64,000 nt of DNA. Origin: an uncultured candidatus Brocadiaceae bacterium (GTDB lineage Bacteria; Planctomycetota; Brocadiia; SM23-32). Position 1 is the first letter of the stretch. Each line of letters starts with the position of its first letter. Made by a program: the position numbers and the translations under genes. Of this stretch, positions 38,452 through 45,328 are shown in pieces. The stretch is from NCBI GenBank assembly GCA_964421565.1, contig CAYQXJ010000001.1, forward strand, positions 192,241-256,240. Reading direction: 5' to 3'. The notes beneath the pieces were generated by a model, which did no database searches, was not told the origin of the DNA, and saw only the letters and a list, made by a program, of their open reading frames with translations.

Positions 38452-39774
38452 CTACCGGATCTCCGCCGCCGGGGTTGGCGAGCGCGGGGACTGCTTGCGG
38501 CGCAGGGTCGGACCATCTTCGACCAGGGGGTCGGGCCAACCGTAACGTTCGTGCATGCGCAGCAGCCATTTCTCGAGCCGGCGTTCGAGCTCGCACGCTA
38601 CGTCGCGTTCCACGTTGATCAGGTTGGTCTGCTCGTCTGGGTCTTTGGCCAGGTTGTATAGTTCGCGCACGGCGGTTCCGTGCCAGTTATGCAGGGGTGT
38701 GTCCGAGGCTGCCCGGATGAGCTTCCAGTCCCTGGTGCGCACGCCGCGCTTCACCTGCCAGGTGCCTTCGGCGAGGAACAGGTTCTCGTAGCCGGCTTCG
38801 CCCTGTGCCACGGCCAGCAAGTCCTTGCCGCACATGTCGGCCGGAGCGTCCGCGCCCGCCAGTCTCAGCAGCGTAGGGGGCAGGTCGAGCATCTGCACCA
38901 TCGGCTCCACCCGCGCCCCGGCGTGCTCTGCGCCGGGCAGCTTCACGATGAGCGGCACGTGGATGTTGTCGTCGTAGAGGCCGTGATGGTCGAAGTAGCC
39001 CTCGTGGCGGTCGAGCACTTCGCCGTGGTCGGAGAAGGCGACGATCAGCGATTCGTCGTAGAGGTCGCGGGCCTTCAGCTCCTCCAGGAATGCGCCCAAA
39101 TGCTCGCTGTTGTATGCGATCTCTGCATCGTACTGAGCGCAGACGTAGCCGGCGTCGGTTATGTCCTCGTCGATCCACCCCCAGCCGACGAATGGGCCGG
39201 CGCGGACCTCGAGCATGGAGGTCTTTGACGGATCTCGCGGATCGCCTTCGTAGAACATGCCGCTGTAGGGTTCGGGCGGCCAGTAGGGTGTGTGAGGGTC
39301 CCAGTAGTGGACGAACTGGAAGAAAGGCCGTCCGCCGGGCAGGTCGTCGAGCATCTGGACGGCGGCGGCGCTGATCAGCTCCGCGTTGCGTTTCACCCGC
39401 GCCTCCTTGTCGGACCCCATACCGGGCCAACGGCGTTCGGCGAACCCATCGCCGAAGAGCTCGGCGTGCCCGTGCAGGTTGTCCACGGCGCAGGTGTGAT
39501 AACCCGCGTCGGTGAGCAGCGCTGGCAGCCAGGGCGCTTCTTCCGGAATCCGCCGCGGCGGTATGACGCCCGCTATCCGATGCCCGTAATCCGCAAGTCC
39601 GGTGAAAAGCGACGCGAAGGACGGATCGGTCGGGATCGCCGGCGCGAAGAAGTTCTCGAACACGATGCCGTCTTCGGCCAGGGCGTCCAGGGCGGGGCTG
39701 GTCTGGCGCCCGTAGCCGTAGCAGCCGAGGTGATCGGCGCGCAGGGTATCGATGGCGATCAGGATGATGTTCAT
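38452..39774 (-). CDS. Sulfatase-family (alkaline phosphatase superfamily) hydrolase with a Thr in the nucleophile position (T-D-P-S-F instead of C-x-P-x-R); no signal peptide
   Basis: The ORF 38452..39861 has a probable start at MNIILIAIDTLRADHLGCYGY (39774). Sulfatase-fold blocks throughout. The motif position reads AIPTDPSFASLFTG. Confidence 0.7.
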   Translation of the reverse strand: MNIILIAIDTLRADHLGCYGYGRQTSPALDALAEDGIVFENFFAPAIPTDPSFASLFTGLADYGHRIAGVIPPRRIPEEAPWLPALLTDAGYHTCAVDNLHGHAELFGDGFAERRWPGMGSDKEARVKRNAELISAAAVQMLDDLPGGRPFFQFVHYWDPHTPYWPPEPYSGMFYEGDPRDPSKTSMLEVRAGPFVGWGWIDEDITDAGYVCAQYDAEIAYNSEHLGAFLEELKARDLYDESLIVAFSDHGEVLDRHEGYFDHHGLYDDNIHVPLIVKLPGAEHAGARVEPMVQMLDLPPTLLRLAGADAPADMCGKDLLAVAQGEAGYENLFLAEGTWQVKRGVRTRDWKLIRAASDTPLHNWHGTAVRELYNLAKDPDEQTNLINVERDVACELERRLEKWLLRMHERYGWPDPLVEDGPTLRRKQSPRSPTPAAEIR

Positions 39775-39951
39775 GGGCCGCTCCGAGCTGAGGCAACCGG
39801 GTACGCGCAGGCAGCTTGCTAAGGCGGCACGAATCCTACGCGGGCGGCCCGCGTGTGTCAAGGCTGGGCAGTGGCCGCGAGCTTGACGGTTTCTGCGGGC
39901 GCTGTTATCGTTCAGCGCGAACGAAAACTTATGCTCGGGAGACCCTCACAG

Positions 39952-41014: not shown

Positions 41015-41659
41015 GTGACCATGTGCGAGACACTCAGCGCGATCCTCGACAGCGGTGTGGTGGCCATCATTCGGGCCGACCGCTCGGAGGGGCTGGTCGA
41101 AGCGGGCAGGGCACTTGCCCGCGGCGGTGTGCGGTGTGTCGAGGTCACAATGACTACCCCCGGCGCGCTGGACGCCATCGCCGGCCTGTGCGAGGCGAGC
41201 GGGGGGGCCTTCATTGTGGGGGCGGGCAGCGTTCTCGACGCGGAGACCGCCCGCGCATGCATCCTGGCCGGGGCCGAATTCCTGGTGATGCCCACCACCG
41301 ACCGTGGCGCGATCCGAATGGCGAAGCGCTACGGCAAGGTCGTCTGCCCGGGCGCGCTCTCGCCGACCGAGGTGCTCTCGGCGTGGCAGGCCGGCGCCGA
41401 CATCGTGAAGGTCTTTCCCGCATCGCTCGGCGGTCCGGCCTACCTTAAGGCGCTGAAGGGGCCGCTGCCGCAGGTGCGCCTGATGCCAGTCGGGGGGGTG
41501 AGTGCGGACAACGCGGCCGACTTCATCCGCGCGGGAGCCTGCGCGGTGGCCCTCGGAAGCGCCCTGGTCAACGACCGGCGCATCGAGACGGCGGATTGGG
41601 ACGCGATAACGCAGGCAGCACGCCAGGTCGTGGAGGCGGTTGGAGAGGCCAGGTCATGA
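41015..41659 (+). CDS. eda: KDPG/KHG aldolase (Eda family)
   Basis: 214 aa. AIIRADRSEG...VRCVEVTMTTPGAL...GAGSVLD...VFPAS..GGPAYLKALKGPLPQVRLMPVGGV typical of Eda. Confidence 0.85.
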   Translation: MTMCETLSAILDSGVVAIIRADRSEGLVEAGRALARGGVRCVEVTMTTPGALDAIAGLCEASGGAFIVGAGSVLDAETARACILAGAEFLVMPTTDRGAIRMAKRYGKVVCPGALSPTEVLSAWQAGADIVKVFPASLGGPAYLKALKGPLPQVRLMPVGGVSADNAADFIRAGACAVALGSALVNDRRIETADWDAITQAARQVVEAVGEARS

Positions 41660-43285
41660 GCTGGCGATCGGGCAGAAGGGATCGCACTCGGTGAACGGGT
41701 CGAGCCCGAGCCCGCTGGTGACGGCCATGCAGCCGGCGCAGACGGCGTGCAGCGCGCAGTTGCCACAGGTCGCCGTCCCGCGGCGGTAGCGATCGGCCGC
41801 CTCTGAGTCGTAGATCTCCGCCAGGGCGTTCTGGCCGACGTTGCCGATTGCCGAAGGGAACTTGCGGCACGCGTGCACCTCGCCGTCCGGCAGCAGGGCC
41901 AGGAAGTTGAACGCCGCCCCGCACCCGTAGCCCGTGCACCCCCCGAAGATGCCTTCCCCCCGAGCATCGCGCACCGGATTCAGCAGATTGTCCTTCAACG
42001 TCAGCATCGCATTCTCGCGCGCAGCGTCGAGGTAGTCCTCCATGAAGGCCGAATAACGCTCAGGGGAGGGCAGAAGCAGGTGCGCACCTTCGCCTACCGG
42101 CGAGAGGCGGTTGAAGGTGAAGCTGTCCGTCTTGCCGCGCAGCTCCTCGGCGAGTGGCAACACCTGGTCAATGTTGGCGTCGGTAAGGGTGAGCATCACG
42201 GCGGAGCGCACCCCGGCGGCCCTCAGCACGTCCAGGAACTCCAACGTGCGGCGAAAGTGCCCCTCGCCCCGTATGCTGTCATTGTGCTCGGCGAGCCCTT
42301 CCAGGCTCACCTGGTAGTAGCGGGGGCGCTGTACTTCTACGATGCGCTCGACATCTTCCTCCGAAGCAGGATTGCCGAGTATGGAGGTGTTGAACCCACG
42401 ATCGGCTGCAGCGCGATAGAGGTCCAGGAACGCTGGATGCAGCAGGGGATTGCCGCCGGTCAGGCAGACGTGGCCGCGCACGTAGCGGTCCCAGCAGAAG
42501 CTGCGCATCTCATCCAGCACCCGCAGCCCCTGTTCGAGCGTCAGGGGTGAACGCTGGCTGCGATCGTAACAGTGCTTGCAGTGCAGATCGCAGCGGTTGG
42601 TGATGTGCCACTGAAGCGTGAAGTTTTCGGCCCTCAAGAACCGCTCCGGTGTGTCGGCCCTGTTGCGGTCGGCTGCACGCCACAGGCGAGGCGGCGGAGC
42701 CAGCAACAGCCCCTTCTCGATGGCGCGCCAAACCAGCCGGTCCACGGTGCCGACCGGCACTCTCCCCTCGTGCGCAGCCTCCTGCGCAGAGATGCCTTCT
42801 GCGTAGAGCTTCACCACGAGCAGATCGCCGTCCTCAGCTTTCTCGGTGCGCAGTTCATCCTTCTGCGGGTTGCGCCACACGGCAATCCACTCGCGCTCCT
42901 TGCGCAGGGGCCCCTCCGCAGAGCCCTTTGAGAATGCATCGCTGAGGGACCAGCGGACGTCGAGCACGTGGAGACTGGGGTTCAGAATGATCGACTCTGT
43001 CGTGCTCGGCAGCTCACAGCTTGCGACCTCGCAACGCGCGCGCGCCAGCCTCGCCACGTCCGTTACCAGCTCTGGCGACCTGGTCTGTTTCAGTGTTCGG
43101 TGAACGGCCCGTAGCAACTGCGGCGGGTGCTCGGCGGACGCCGCGCCTGTGCCGTTGCGAGCCCGTAAACCGCTTGACGCCTGGACCCCCTGATGGTTAG
43201 CCATCCTTAGAAAACGCCCCCTGGCGTGGCAGGGCCGCCCCCAACGGCGGCCCCCACGCCGCTTTAAGTCATCGTTCGGGACCAT
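41654..43285 (-). CDS. Radical SAM/SPASM-domain enzyme with a ~215-aa N-terminal extension containing a sigma-70 region-4-like / RRE-like winged helix
   Basis: 543 aa. The CxxxCxxC motif (HITNRCDLHCKHCYD) is at aa 232-239. The C-terminal Cys-rich SPASM-like region is GGCTGYGCG...CRKF...TCGNCALHAVCAGC...ECDPFC. The N-terminal segment LLVVKLYAEGISAQEAAHEGRVPVGTVDRLVWRAIEKGLL resembles ECF sigma region 4. Confidence 0.75.
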   Translation of the reverse strand: MVPNDDLKRRGGRRWGRPCHARGRFLRMANHQGVQASSGLRARNGTGAASAEHPPQLLRAVHRTLKQTRSPELVTDVARLARARCEVASCELPSTTESIILNPSLHVLDVRWSLSDAFSKGSAEGPLRKEREWIAVWRNPQKDELRTEKAEDGDLLVVKLYAEGISAQEAAHEGRVPVGTVDRLVWRAIEKGLLLAPPPRLWRAADRNRADTPERFLRAENFTLQWHITNRCDLHCKHCYDRSQRSPLTLEQGLRVLDEMRSFCWDRYVRGHVCLTGGNPLLHPAFLDLYRAAADRGFNTSILGNPASEEDVERIVEVQRPRYYQVSLEGLAEHNDSIRGEGHFRRTLEFLDVLRAAGVRSAVMLTLTDANIDQVLPLAEELRGKTDSFTFNRLSPVGEGAHLLLPSPERYSAFMEDYLDAARENAMLTLKDNLLNPVRDARGEGIFGGCTGYGCGAAFNFLALLPDGEVHACRKFPSAIGNVGQNALAEIYDSEAADRYRRGTATCGNCALHAVCAGCMAVTSGLGLDPFTECDPFCPIASS

Positions 43286-43311
43286 GGCTGGTGCCGCGGC
43301 CCCTGGTTTCG

Positions 43312-43542
43312 TCAGCTACAAGAGCCCTGGCCACACGAAGACGCGTCGGTCTTCTCACCCGAGCACGAGCCGTTGCCGCACGAGCCAGCGCCACATGAGG
43401 CTTTCTCCGTCTTGGTGCCGTCATCGTCACGGGCGGCTCCGCGGTGCGTGGATGAACATCCTGTCGCCGCCAGCGTTGCGCCGGCCAGCAGCCCGGCTAC
43501 GCTCAACGTTGCCAGCGCTCGTCCCAGCTTACCCTTATCCAA
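43312..43542 (-). CDS. Small Cys/Gly/Ser-rich lipoprotein-like peptide (candidate radical SAM substrate)
   Basis: 76 aa. TTG start with an AGGAGG Shine-Dalgarno 7 nt upstream. Signal/lipobox LSVAGLLAGATLAATGC. Core ...KASCGAGSCGNGSCSGEKTDASSCGQGSCS with repeated SCGxGSC. Stop lies 27 nt upstream of the rSAM gene on the same strand. Confidence 0.55.
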   Translation of the reverse strand: MDKGKLGRALATLSVAGLLAGATLAATGCSSTHRGAARDDDGTKTEKASCGAGSCGNGSCSGEKTDASSCGQGSCS

Positions 43543-43819
43543 TGAAGCCCCTCCTGTCGCGAGAGTGAAGAAACCACCGGGGGCACCTCGCCCTCCGGTC
43601 CCGTCTAACTATGTCACTGTGTGATACCTATTGTTCAGGTGAAAAGCGCCCCACATCGGCTTCTGCCCGGGGGGGCCGCACTTGATCAGGAGTTCAGACG
43701 CCACTGTACCAGGGCCGCAGCAGAACGGCTATAGGGCTCTTCCCCACCTGGGCGCTCGTTCTGCACCACAAGGCACGCAGAGACGCTGCCCATCTGCCGC
43801 TTTCGCCCTGGCTCCGGGG

Positions 43820-43841
43820 CCCGTGCTGTCGGGCGCACGGG
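43820..43841 (-). terminator. GC-rich hairpin (7-bp stem CCCGTGC/GCACGGG, 8-nt loop) 9 nt downstream of the Tat-sulfatase stop
   Basis: Inverted repeat read directly, with no U-tract, as is common in high-GC genomes. It separates the sulfatase from the peptide/rSAM unit, which has its own AT-rich upstream region. Confidence 0.3.
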
Positions 43842-43849
43842 CAGGGTGC

Positions 43850-45328
43850 TCAGTTCTTCCAGACGTCGGGGTCGTCGGTCTCGTGGCGCAACTGGCGCAT
43901 GCGCAACTGCAGTTGCGTGATCAGTTCCTCGTGGCCTTCCACAGCGGCCAGGTTGTGCAGCTCGTCCGGGTCTTCGCTCAGGTCGTAGAGTTCATGAGCC
44001 TGGGGCGAGCGGCTGTACCAGTGGATGTATTTGTGGCGCTCGGTGCGGATGCCACGGAAGGGGGGGATGTTGCCCAGTTCGGGGAACTCGTAGTACTCAT
44101 ACAGCCAGTCCTCTCGCCATGGCGTCGGTTCGCCCCGCAGCAACGGCAGAAAGCTGCGCCCCTGCATGTGGTCGGGCACCGGCGCGCCGGCAATCTCCAG
44201 CAGCGTGGGGGCGATGTCGATGTTGAGCACCATGGGATGGAGGACCGTGCCGGCGGGTATGCCAGCCGGCCATCGCAGCACGAACGGCACGCGTATAGAG
44301 GGTTCGTACATCAGGCGCTTGTCACCGAGGCCGAACTCGCCCATGAAACGGCCGTTGTCGGAGGTGTGGATGACCACGGTGTCCCGCGCCAGGCCCTGCT
44401 GCTGGAGTGCTTCGAGAACCTGGCCGACACTATCGTCGACGGCCGCCAGTAACTGGTATATCCTGCGCTGTCGCTCGGCCCACGCGGCGATCCTTGCGGG
44501 GTCTGTTCCCTTTGCTGCGCGGCTGCGCACCCACTCGGGCCGGTCGGACATGTCGGCGCCCCAGCTCTGCGGTGGGTCGAACTCGTGGTCCTCATACATG
44601 TGGGCGAACCGCTCCGGCGGCTCCAACGGCACGTGCGGCGCTTTGTACCAGACGAAAAGGATGAAGGGCTTGCTGTGCGGACGCCGTATGAACTGGAGCG
44701 CATGTTCCGTCAGTATGTCCGTAAGATGGCCCTCGTAAACGCGGTCCTCGTACGGTCCCTGGGGCGAGTCGGCCTCGGCGATTTGCGGGTTGTGGTACCA
44801 GCTATGGCCCTTGAAGCCGAAGTAGTAATCGAAGCCTCGGTCGCGCAGGTAGGGCTTGAAATGCGACTTGCCGATGAACGCCGTCTCGTAGCCGTGCCTT
44901 TGCATGATTTCCGGGAAGGTGACGAACTCCCTGGAGAGGGCTACCTCCTCGAGACGGGGCGTCACGCGGTTCGCGCAGATCAGGTGCGAGTGGCTGTATA
45001 GCCCGGTCATGATGGAGGCGCGGGAAGGCGCACACAGGGAGTTGGTGACGAATGCATTGCTCAGCAGGGCGCCTTCGTCTGCGATGCGGTCGATGTTTGG
45101 CGAGTGCACCCAGGGGTTCCCGTAGGCGCCGATGGCCGAGGCGGGGTGGTCATCCGGCATGAACATGACGATGTTGGGCCGGCCCATGCTATTTCCTGGC
45201 GGCATGTGTTCGGTCCCTTCTCTCTTCGTGGTCTGCAAACAGCCGGTGGATGAGGCGAGCAGCCCGGCGGCCGCGGTTGTCGCCGCCCCCTTCAGAAGGT
45301 TGCGCCTGTCGATGCGTATACTCTCCAC
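43850..45328 (-). CDS. Arylsulfatase-family sulfatase (Cys-type) with Tat signal peptide
   Basis: 492 aa. RRNLLKGAATTAAAGLLASS twin-arginine signal. FGly motif CAPSRASIMTG. C-terminal IRTERHKYIHW...ELYDLSEDPDELHNLA. Confidence 0.9.
   Translation of the reverse strand: MESIRIDRRNLLKGAATTAAAGLLASSTGCLQTTKREGTEHMPPGNSMGRPNIVMFMPDDHPASAIGAYGNPWVHSPNIDRIADEGALLSNAFVTNSLCAPSRASIMTGLYSHSHLICANRVTPRLEEVALSREFVTFPEIMQRHGYETAFIGKSHFKPYLRDRGFDYYFGFKGHSWYHNPQIAEADSPQGPYEDRVYEGHLTDILTEHALQFIRRPHSKPFILFVWYKAPHVPLEPPERFAHMYEDHEFDPPQSWGADMSDRPEWVRSRAAKGTDPARIAAWAERQRRIYQLLAAVDDSVGQVLEALQQQGLARDTVVIHTSDNGRFMGEFGLGDKRLMYEPSIRVPFVLRWPAGIPAGTVLHPMVLNIDIAPTLLEIAGAPVPDHMQGRSFLPLLRGEPTPWREDWLYEYYEFPELGNIPPFRGIRTERHKYIHWYSRSPQAHELYDLSEDPDELHNLAAVEGHEELITQLQLRMRQLRHETDDPDVWKN

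Follow-up and report, generated by a model that had tools for sequence, protein, structure and literature searches.

What is the long segment that precedes the catalytic core of a radical S-adenosylmethionine (SAM) enzyme in an uncultured candidatus Brocadiaceae bacterium? The question arises from a stretch of 64,000 nucleotides, hereafter the window (assembly GCA_964421565.1, contig CAYQXJ010000001.1, positions 192,241 to 256,240). On its minus strand, 43285 to 41654 forms a single uninterrupted open reading frame (ORF) of 543 aa. The cluster motif, CDLHCKHC, lies at residues 232–239 of this long ORF (nt 42592..42569) with no in-frame stop before it, as had been described in a sequence-only reading of the window. 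That reading regarded the preceding ~215 residues as either a genuine fusion or a spurious 5' extension, and likened a segment within them to region 4 of sigma-70 factors and to the winged helix of a recognition element (RRE) for peptides that are made on the ribosome and modified after translation (RiPPs). Here, we identified the enzyme as the thio(seleno)oxazole maturase SbtM. Judged from profiles, intermediate sequences, and predicted structure, its extension is a fused homologue of the DUF2063/HvfC proteins that act as partners of oxidative enzymes that depend on multinuclear non-heme iron (MNIOs). Residue numbers marked "from M28" are counted from the ATG at 43204.

By sequence, the product of the ORF at 41654..43285 is SbtM. 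An NCBIfam search matched it to TIGR04082 ("thio(seleno)oxazole modification radical SAM maturase SbtM") with 685.2 bits, where the cutoff is 350; a Pfam search of the whole protein gave Radical_SAM and SPASM only. Residues 50–539 were aligned with positions 21–516 of the 516-position model, extension included. On this alignment, the curated model already holds ~200 residues before the cluster motif. All three cysteines of CxxxCxxC were invariant in an alignment of 30 homologues. The locus is a further sbtA–sbtM pair within a family already named by NCBI. The sequence-only reading had known of no described radical SAM enzyme with such a domain; in one sense this was wrong, as SbtM is a curated and biochemically characterized family. 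In PMC9204691, which summarizes the work on a Geobacter homologue (Lewis et al. 2021), SbtM is reported to convert Cys or selenocysteine in a Gly-Cys/selenocysteine context to a thio(seleno)oxazole, with a loss of 4 Da at each site and an absorbance near 304 nm, and to carry about three 4Fe-4S clusters. The position of the cluster motif had also been called unusually far from the N-terminus. This holds in that the N-domain is about twice the usual length, but an N-terminal domain is itself normal for radical SAM maturases of RiPPs: the AlbA, SkfB, and StsB profiles align from position ~96–117, and CteB and SuiB were top structural matches of the full-length model.

The extension was predicted with AlphaFold to be a two-part domain. 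From M28, the predicted secondary structure comprised helices at 27–41 and 44–61, strands at 79–83, 105–112, and 117–122, and helices at 125–135, 140–147, and 151–164. The N-domain modelled alone had a mean residue confidence (pLDDT) of 83, with block means of 94–98 over residues 51–170 and one loop block at 78; in the RRE part, block means were 93–98 except for one loop block at 72–78. The full-length model had a pLDDT of 89.8 and a predicted TM-score (pTM) of 0.88. The three strands and three helices of the model show RRE topology of the PqqD-like kind, and the segment singled out in the sequence-only reading (PQKDEL...EKGLL) is present as strand 3 and helices 1–3 of this confidently predicted domain. 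A Foldseek search of the PDB with the predicted N-domain gave 3DEE (NGO1945/NgoC) as the top match (E 2.7e-6, TM-scores 0.64/0.62, 183 columns of 193 residues). Chain A of TglHI (8HCI, 8HI7) came second with E ~1e-4, and is the partner protein TglI because chain D is the DUF692 enzyme (MNIO TglH). NGO1945 is NgoC, a "PME1" protein of DUF2063+RRE type that partners an MNIO enzyme (PMC12668002, PMC12452194). MNIOs with DUF2063-RRE partners make 5-thiooxazoles on Cys-rich precursors that bear a Sec signal (PMC11626156, PMC12668002, PMC12452194).

Profile comparisons pointed to the same proteins. A profile of 25 SbtM N-domains was compared by hhalign with one of HvfC, FonC, and NgoC proteins, whose sequences were taken from a paper supplement. 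The match had a probability of 90.8 and a P value of 1.2e-6 over 126 columns, extended collinearly across 195 columns when the setting was relaxed, and took in the helical DUF2063 motifs; controls with one reversed and 20 column-shuffled profiles gave P ≥ 0.14. Furthermore, an exhaustive HMMER search of 1.84 billion representative sequences with the N-domain profile retrieved 574 proteins at E ≤ 1e-3. Apart from SbtM sequences, whole or fragmentary, these included stand-alone proteins of ~240–250 aa that matched over their residues ~50–245 with E values from 1e-36 to 1e-21. All ten stand-alone matches tested passed the Pfam gathering threshold of DUF2063 (PF09836). Two of them, P0303 and P0305, were run against NCBIfam, and both matched the N-terminal 173 positions of TIGR04082 as well as NF050145 ("HvfC family RiPP maturation protein"). 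On the traced contigs, their genes each directly follow an MNIO gene. At the P0305 locus, L085 (GCA_003695705.1, RFHU01000400.1, 2815..4732), the order is precursor, MNIO, and DUF2063 protein, and the precursor, MKKLSSLTKVVGAFALGALVMTGC...(GSCGGKD)x4, consists of a lipoprotein signal and S-C-G repeats. P0305 is close to the SbtM N-domain (E 1e-34); the cluster is followed by genes with weak Phage_GPD-like matches. Other searches were not informative: Pfam gave nothing at E ≤ 1 on the window's extension alone, phmmer of the extension against PDB sequences returned noise only, and a hand-written DUF2063 consensus did not retrieve 3DEE from the PDB. Among the 25 homologue N-domains, five had sub-threshold DUF2063 matches (best E 0.026) and one matched NGO1945_C at E 0.0027.

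The gene directly upstream encodes the presumed substrate. It is missing from the public gene calls for the contig, and its product matched TIGR04081, the SbtA precursor model, below the cutoff (22.7 against 30.5 bits; model positions 1–26 of 27, SbtA residues 1–26). A custom leader hidden Markov model (HMM) detected it with E 5.5e-7. For comparison, sbtM loci were collected by tblastn from one genome per species, and the best 80 were examined in detail; together with the window, 72 of these 81 loci had an SbtA-like peptide, mostly directly upstream of sbtM. On the leader HMM and shared synteny, we accepted the upstream peptide as a probable SbtA. The leader consensus is MDxxxLKKxLAGxxxAGLxAGAxL, with a mean pairwise identity of 46% over 27 aa across phyla; L10 and L18 were conserved in 99–100% of the 72 peptides. 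The SbtA N-terminus is thus conserved far beyond the needs of a signal peptide. A lipobox-like motif was found in 46 of the 72, and the site context [S/G/T][S/G/A]-(Cys or selenocysteine)-[S/G]-G was recurrent. By core type, ~43 peptides carried selenocysteine (U; SGUSG, SSUSG), 21 Cys (TSCSG, GSCGK), and three both. The window's SbtA is of the Cys type. Its stop codon, TGA (43312..43314), immediately follows GSCS, and several Cys-type homologues likewise end in TGA. We read it as a true stop, because the frame beyond it (RNQGPRHQPWSRTMT) has no resemblance to an SbtA core and an Rfam search of 43000..43900 found no family, the selenocysteine insertion sequence (SECIS) included. Long tandem-repeat cores of the Cys type occurred elsewhere: L037 (~2175 onward) carries TSCSGKTK at least five times, running into an N-masked gap, and L060 (~2263 onward) carries KGSCGGGTME five times. 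These cores suggest copy-number expansion of modification sites.

Taken together, we consider it quite likely that sbtA and sbtM form a RiPP cassette in which SbtM combines an HvfC/BufC/NgoC-homologous module of ~170 structured residues with a radical SAM barrel and a SPASM domain, and in which this module docks the SbtA leader. By analogy with the MNIO partners, docking of the leader is the most likely function of the module, and leader conservation would be consistent with such binding. In the proposed mechanism, the fused DUF2063-RRE module would bind the conserved, signal-peptide-like N-terminus of SbtA, and the C-terminal S-C-G/S repeats would then be presented to the active site of the radical SAM/SPASM part, where two SAM-dependent steps would oxidize each Cys to a 5-thiooxazole, as in the published SbtM chemistry. 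The modified SbtA would be exported and lipidated through its lipoprotein signal, and may serve as a surface-tethered metal-binding peptide, by analogy only with bufferins and fontiphorin (PMC11626156, PMC12668002). The sequence-only reading had proposed that an RRE-type winged helix might recognize the adjacent peptide, and was essentially right: the predicted three-strand/three-helix fold and the apparent DUF2063-RRE homology agree with the first part, and analogy with the partner proteins makes the second plausible.

Several points weigh against this proposal. A synthetic "minimal peptide" is reportedly modified by SbtM in vitro (PMC9204691), so the leader may enhance turnover rather than be required. 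The window's N-domain reaches no Pfam threshold for DUF2063 or RRE and has no NCBIfam match to HvfC. The window's SbtM also lacks the first helix of the family (YPxCR), which is missing or degenerate in the alignment, and the first ~25 residues from M28 are predicted to be disordered in the full-length AlphaFold model. The loss of YPxCR is real, since neither alternative frame encodes the motif as a frameshifted remnant and an independent assembly has exactly the same upstream DNA. For this particular protein, leader docking would be assigned by analogy. Finally, the SbtA leader model gave no match to the MNIO-linked precursor of L085; therefore, the two systems share a precursor architecture and not a demonstrably homologous leader.

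In a different role, the module would be mainly an intramolecular scaffold that shapes the active site without binding the leader, like the DUF2063 subdomain that contacts the MNIO in TglHI. The pTM of the full-length model suggests a defined packing of the N-domain on the core, the turnover of the minimal peptide is compatible with this role, and the substrates of DUF2063-associated RREs have no obvious recognition motif (PMC12710340). However, the cross-phylum identity of the SbtA N-terminus and its nearly constant L10 and L18 argue for a protein that reads it. We regard the scaffold role as improbable, and leader docking by the module as the better account.

Slightly less probable still is that the extension is an ordinary PqqD-like RRE, as in CteB, SuiB, and AlbA, with the upstream helices as a linker and no specific kinship to DUF2063 or MNIO partners. 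The three-strand/three-helix topology is generic to RREs, and the full-length model had CteB, SuiB, SkfB, PqqE, and anaerobic sulfatase-maturing enzyme (anSME) as its nearest structures in Foldseek, the first three at the top. In contrast, the N-domain alone retrieved 3DEE and TglI over both subdomains, and neither CteB nor SuiB was among its top 50 matches. In addition, the hhalign match covers the helical DUF2063 motifs, and proteins that pass Pfam DUF2063 match the whole module with E values down to 1e-36. These results favour the specific kinship with the MNIO partners.

The sequence-only reading had given prominence to a likeness to sigma-70 region 4, and had raised a DNA-binding autoregulatory domain as one option; the enzyme would then autoregulate its own operon. 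Local likeness of this kind, to sigma or LuxR-type helix-turn-helix (HTH) domains, was indeed seen. In the window's extension, NCBIfam sigma models gave sub-threshold matches (E 0.052 and 0.12 over 32–34 residues) and Pfam sigma-4 gave none; three N-domains of the 25 homologues matched Pfam Sigma70_r4_2, with E 0.0042 at best. When the PDB was searched by profile, SigD region 4 came up at E 0.15, and the HTH matches in Foldseek (SigE, SigW domain 4, and many of LuxR type) spanned 41–46 columns with E 0.6–2.5 and root-mean-square deviations of 1.2–2.7 Å. NGO1945 itself, the closest structural relative, was first deposited as a putative transcription regulator. However, no match was significant, and every one spans ~45 residues, namely RRE helices 1–3, with 24–32% identity and a similar "EGxS..E.A...G...GTV" pattern to that of region 4 of extracytoplasmic function (ECF) sigma factors. 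Unlike sigma region 4, the SbtM module has a three-stranded sheet before the helices, its "recognition helix" (consensus PVGAVDxAxxRA) is not basic, and a Pfam scan of the protein detected no sigma region 2. Unlike the sigma and LuxR domains, its global relatives are peptide-binding MNIO partners and not DNA-binding proteins, and NGO1945 is now described as the peptide-modification partner NgoC. The resemblance thus reflects a generic HTH within the RRE and is no sign of sigma-factor ancestry; an autoregulatory DNA-binding domain found no support and is very improbable.

Several lines of evidence indicated that the extension is a genuine and conserved part of the enzyme. In a set of the 120 best homologues, mostly 520–550 aa long, the sequences align through the extension, with conserved blocks YPxCRxxLGxxxW, PxFLPDLARLEWA, NPTLxVLxLxW, GEEWVLVWRxP, and DLLALKxxxEGIxxEEAAxxGxVPVGxxDxALxRAxxxGxLLAP; invariant or near-invariant positions of the N-domain include L50, A51, E54, N75, P76, W85, K132, and R176. 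In 79 of the 80 genome loci, tblastn alignments begin within query residues 27–98; the remaining one is cut off by a contig end. The strand-helix half begins at residue 102 of the long ORF, so at least this half of the extension is retained at those loci. We conclude that the extension is genuine because the family model, the homologue alignment, the genome loci, and the confident fold agree, which also answers the question of whether orthologues keep it. The fusion that the sequence-only reading had considered was thereby borne out, with a probable length of ~193 aa. A homologue of 586 aa (P0353) is longer by ~65 residues at its N-terminus, and its first helical region is divergent; taken with the loss of YPxCR in the window, this suggests evolutionary plasticity at the very N-terminal end of the module. 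That the extension is a spurious 5' run-on with the true start near the cluster motif is hardly credible: long chance ORFs arise in high-GC genomes, the start differs between public gene calls, and the first ~27 codons have a non-coding look (disorder, no match to the family model, and overlap with hairpins), but residues 50–220 are conserved across phyla, lie within the curated model, and fold confidently. A run-on is refuted for residues ~50–220, which leaves a start at 43285, 43204, or, less likely, 43057.

Among these, ATG 43204 is probably the start codon of SbtM. In the public annotation, SbtM starts at GTG 43057 (467 aa, database entry P0001). This start is probably wrong, because it splits the conserved FLPDLARLE motif, interrupting LARLE, and lies downstream of the near-invariant Pro71, which would be lost. 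In the long frame, codons 1–27 lie outside the TIGR04082 match and overlap two stable RNA hairpins. They are probably untranslated; therefore, ATG 43204 is the likely start. It is preceded by AAGG, and its product of 516 aa equals the TIGR04082 model in length; the extension is then ~193 aa rather than ~215, with CxxxCxxC at residues 205–212. Hairpin 1 pairs over ATG 43285. Hairpin 2 has a 15-bp G+C stem followed by GCGUUUUCU (a weak U-tract), directly before AAGG-ATG 43204. A terminator-like match occurs at 43234..43219, although the total of such matches was not above chance. With a z score of −2.0, the hairpin data are only suggestive as to the start codon. G+C content at third codon positions did not discriminate among the candidate starts, and a sigma-70 promoter scan found nothing. 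Lying between sbtA and sbtM, the hairpins may be an attenuator that sets the precursor-to-enzyme ratio. The public gene calls are likely in error twice here, in omitting sbtA and in truncating SbtM at GTG 43057.

An anSME for the sulfatases encoded on either side is just as hardly credible as a run-on, since the flanking genes, one with a CAPSR motif, and the structural closeness of anSME to the SbtM core stand against the absence of any anSME family among the best 25 of 58 NCBIfam matches (SbtM, 685 bits), the dedicated SbtA precursor next to the gene, and the lack of this N-domain in anSMEs. The flanking sulfatase-family genes lie on the minus strand at 38452..39861 and 43850..45328, the latter with the Cys-type CAPSR motif. 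Other neighbours are genes of sugar-acid catabolism (a PfkB kinase, an aldolase of the 2-keto-3-deoxy-6-phosphogluconate (KDPG) type, and a dehydratase of the mandelate racemase/muconate-lactonizing enzyme (MR/MLE) group), and the two-gene RiPP cassette looks inserted in a polysaccharide-utilization region. The coordinates of the features are summarized in Table 1.

Table 1. Features of the sbtA–sbtM locus in the window (position 1 is the first letter of the window).
Feature	Coordinates	Strand	Basis and remarks
sbtM, most likely coding span (516 aa)	41654..43204	-	TIGR04082, 685 bits; model length 516
Radical SAM cluster motif CxxxCxxC	42569..42592	-	C205/C209/C212 from M28; C232/236/239 in the long ORF; columns invariant
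Radical SAM core domain	42146..42604	-	Pfam PF04055, E 2e-17; long-ORF residues 228-380
SPASM auxiliary-cluster domain	41729..41923	-	Pfam PF13186, E 2.6e-8; long-ORF residues 455-519; Cys invariant
DUF2063-like helical subdomain (predicted)	43022..43126	-	Two helices, residues 27-61 from M28; AlphaFold models, hhalign against the HvfC family, homologue alignment
RRE-type winged helix (predicted)	42695..42982	-	Residues 75-170 from M28, with three strands before three helices; includes the "sigma-4-like" segment
sbtA–sbtM intergenic hairpins	43209..43303	-	RNA fold -57.5 kcal/mol, z -2.0
sbtA precursor gene	43312..43542	-	Encodes 76 aa; starts with TTG, with a Shine-Dalgarno AGGAGG 7 nt before it; ends 26 nt before the long sbtM frame
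SbtA residues 1-28, signal-peptide-like leader MDKGKLGRALATLSVAGLLAGATLAATG, then lipobox Cys29	43459..43542	-	
SbtA core, residues 48-76	43315..43401	-	Five candidate sites, Cys50, 55, 60, 70, and 75 (ASCGA, GSCGN, GSCSG, SSCGQ, GSCS)

The family proved to be broadly distributed. SbtM relatives were found in at least 566 species-level genomes, counting one genome per species. They span many phyla, mostly anaerobic, and come from Desulfobacterota, Nitrospirota, Omnitrophota, Brocadiia, Lentisphaerae, KSB1, Calditrichota, and Chloroflexota (loci L004–L083). A 2022 perspective gave the range of SbtM as Geobacter and Desulfobacteria (PMC9204691); the family is far more widespread than that and includes a sizeable class with Cys-only precursors. 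The sbtA–sbtM locus itself is routine, and the value of the analysis lies in the identity of the extension. Precomputed Pfam annotations of SbtM homologues list Radical_SAM and SPASM only. No link between the SbtM N-terminus and DUF2063/PME1 was found in the literature searched; the primary SbtM paper, which was outside that search, may already note it. The extension connects thio(seleno)oxazole formation by the radical SAM route with the large MNIO/DUF2063 family (bufferins, oxazolin/fontiphorin, and gonophorin) through an apparently shared recognition module and a shared precursor design.

A broader reading, on which we hold the balance to be even, is that the SbtM module is a captured HvfC/PME1 chaperone. 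Two unrelated catalysts would then produce thiooxazole peptides: an MNIO, which depends on O2 and has the module in trans, and a radical SAM enzyme, which does without O2 and has it in cis. Both would use the same docking module on the same kind of exported S-C-G-repeat precursor, and the Cys-type SbtA lipoproteins would be the anaerobes' counterpart of the bufferin/fontiphorin metallophores. If true, this would parallel sulfatase maturation, with its formylglycine-generating enzyme (FGE) and anSME. The identity of the extension makes testable the role of the poorly understood DUF2063 subdomain, whether one segment can serve as both signal peptide and RiPP leader, and whether the module can be swapped between aerobic and anaerobic catalysts.

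Among known systems, anSME shares the SPASM radical SAM core with SbtM, and the proposed first step of SbtM, abstraction of a Cys β-hydrogen to give a thioaldehyde, parallels that of anSME (PMC9204691). In contrast to SbtM, anSME has no N-terminal recognition module, and its substrate is the CxPxR motif of sulfatases. CteB, SuiB, SkfB, and AlbA have the same order of an N-terminal recognition domain, a radical SAM barrel, and an auxiliary-cluster domain. Their N-domain is, however, a ~100-aa RRE without the DUF2063 part, and their chemistry is thioether or C–C crosslinking and not heterocycle formation.

The PME1 proteins HvfC, BufC, NgoC, and TglI (PF09836 + PF22106; NF050145) resemble the SbtM module in their DUF2063 helical part and RRE winged helix, with a collinear match in profile and predicted structure. 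Both systems have Cys-rich precursors with Sec or lipoprotein signal peptides and a 5-thiooxazole product; the window's SbtA is alike in design to the MNIO substrate NgoA (GSCGASKSAEGSCG...) and to the L085 precursor. The SbtM module differs in that it lies in cis with a radical SAM/SPASM core, whereas PME1 is a separate protein alongside an O2-dependent di- or tri-iron MNIO. It also lacks the first ~45 residues of the stand-alone DUF2063 proteins, and the window's copy falls below Pfam thresholds. No MNIO gene was found within ~5 kb on either side of sbtAM. Given the fusion to a radical SAM enzyme and the lack of a nearby MNIO, the module is a homologue of PME1 and not, operationally, a PME1 protein.

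The closest system is SbtM/SbtA itself (TIGR04082/TIGR04081). The window's enzyme has the full-length equivalog match with the N-domain and the CxxxCxxC and SPASM cysteines, and its probable precursor lies directly upstream with a family-like leader and [S/G]-(C/U)-[S/G]-G sites. It differs in the absence of the first N-terminal helix of SbtM and in a leader that scores below the TIGR04081 cutoff. Furthermore, its precursor has Cys at all five sites and lacks an in-frame UGA, whereas the first-described Geobacter examples contain selenocysteine.

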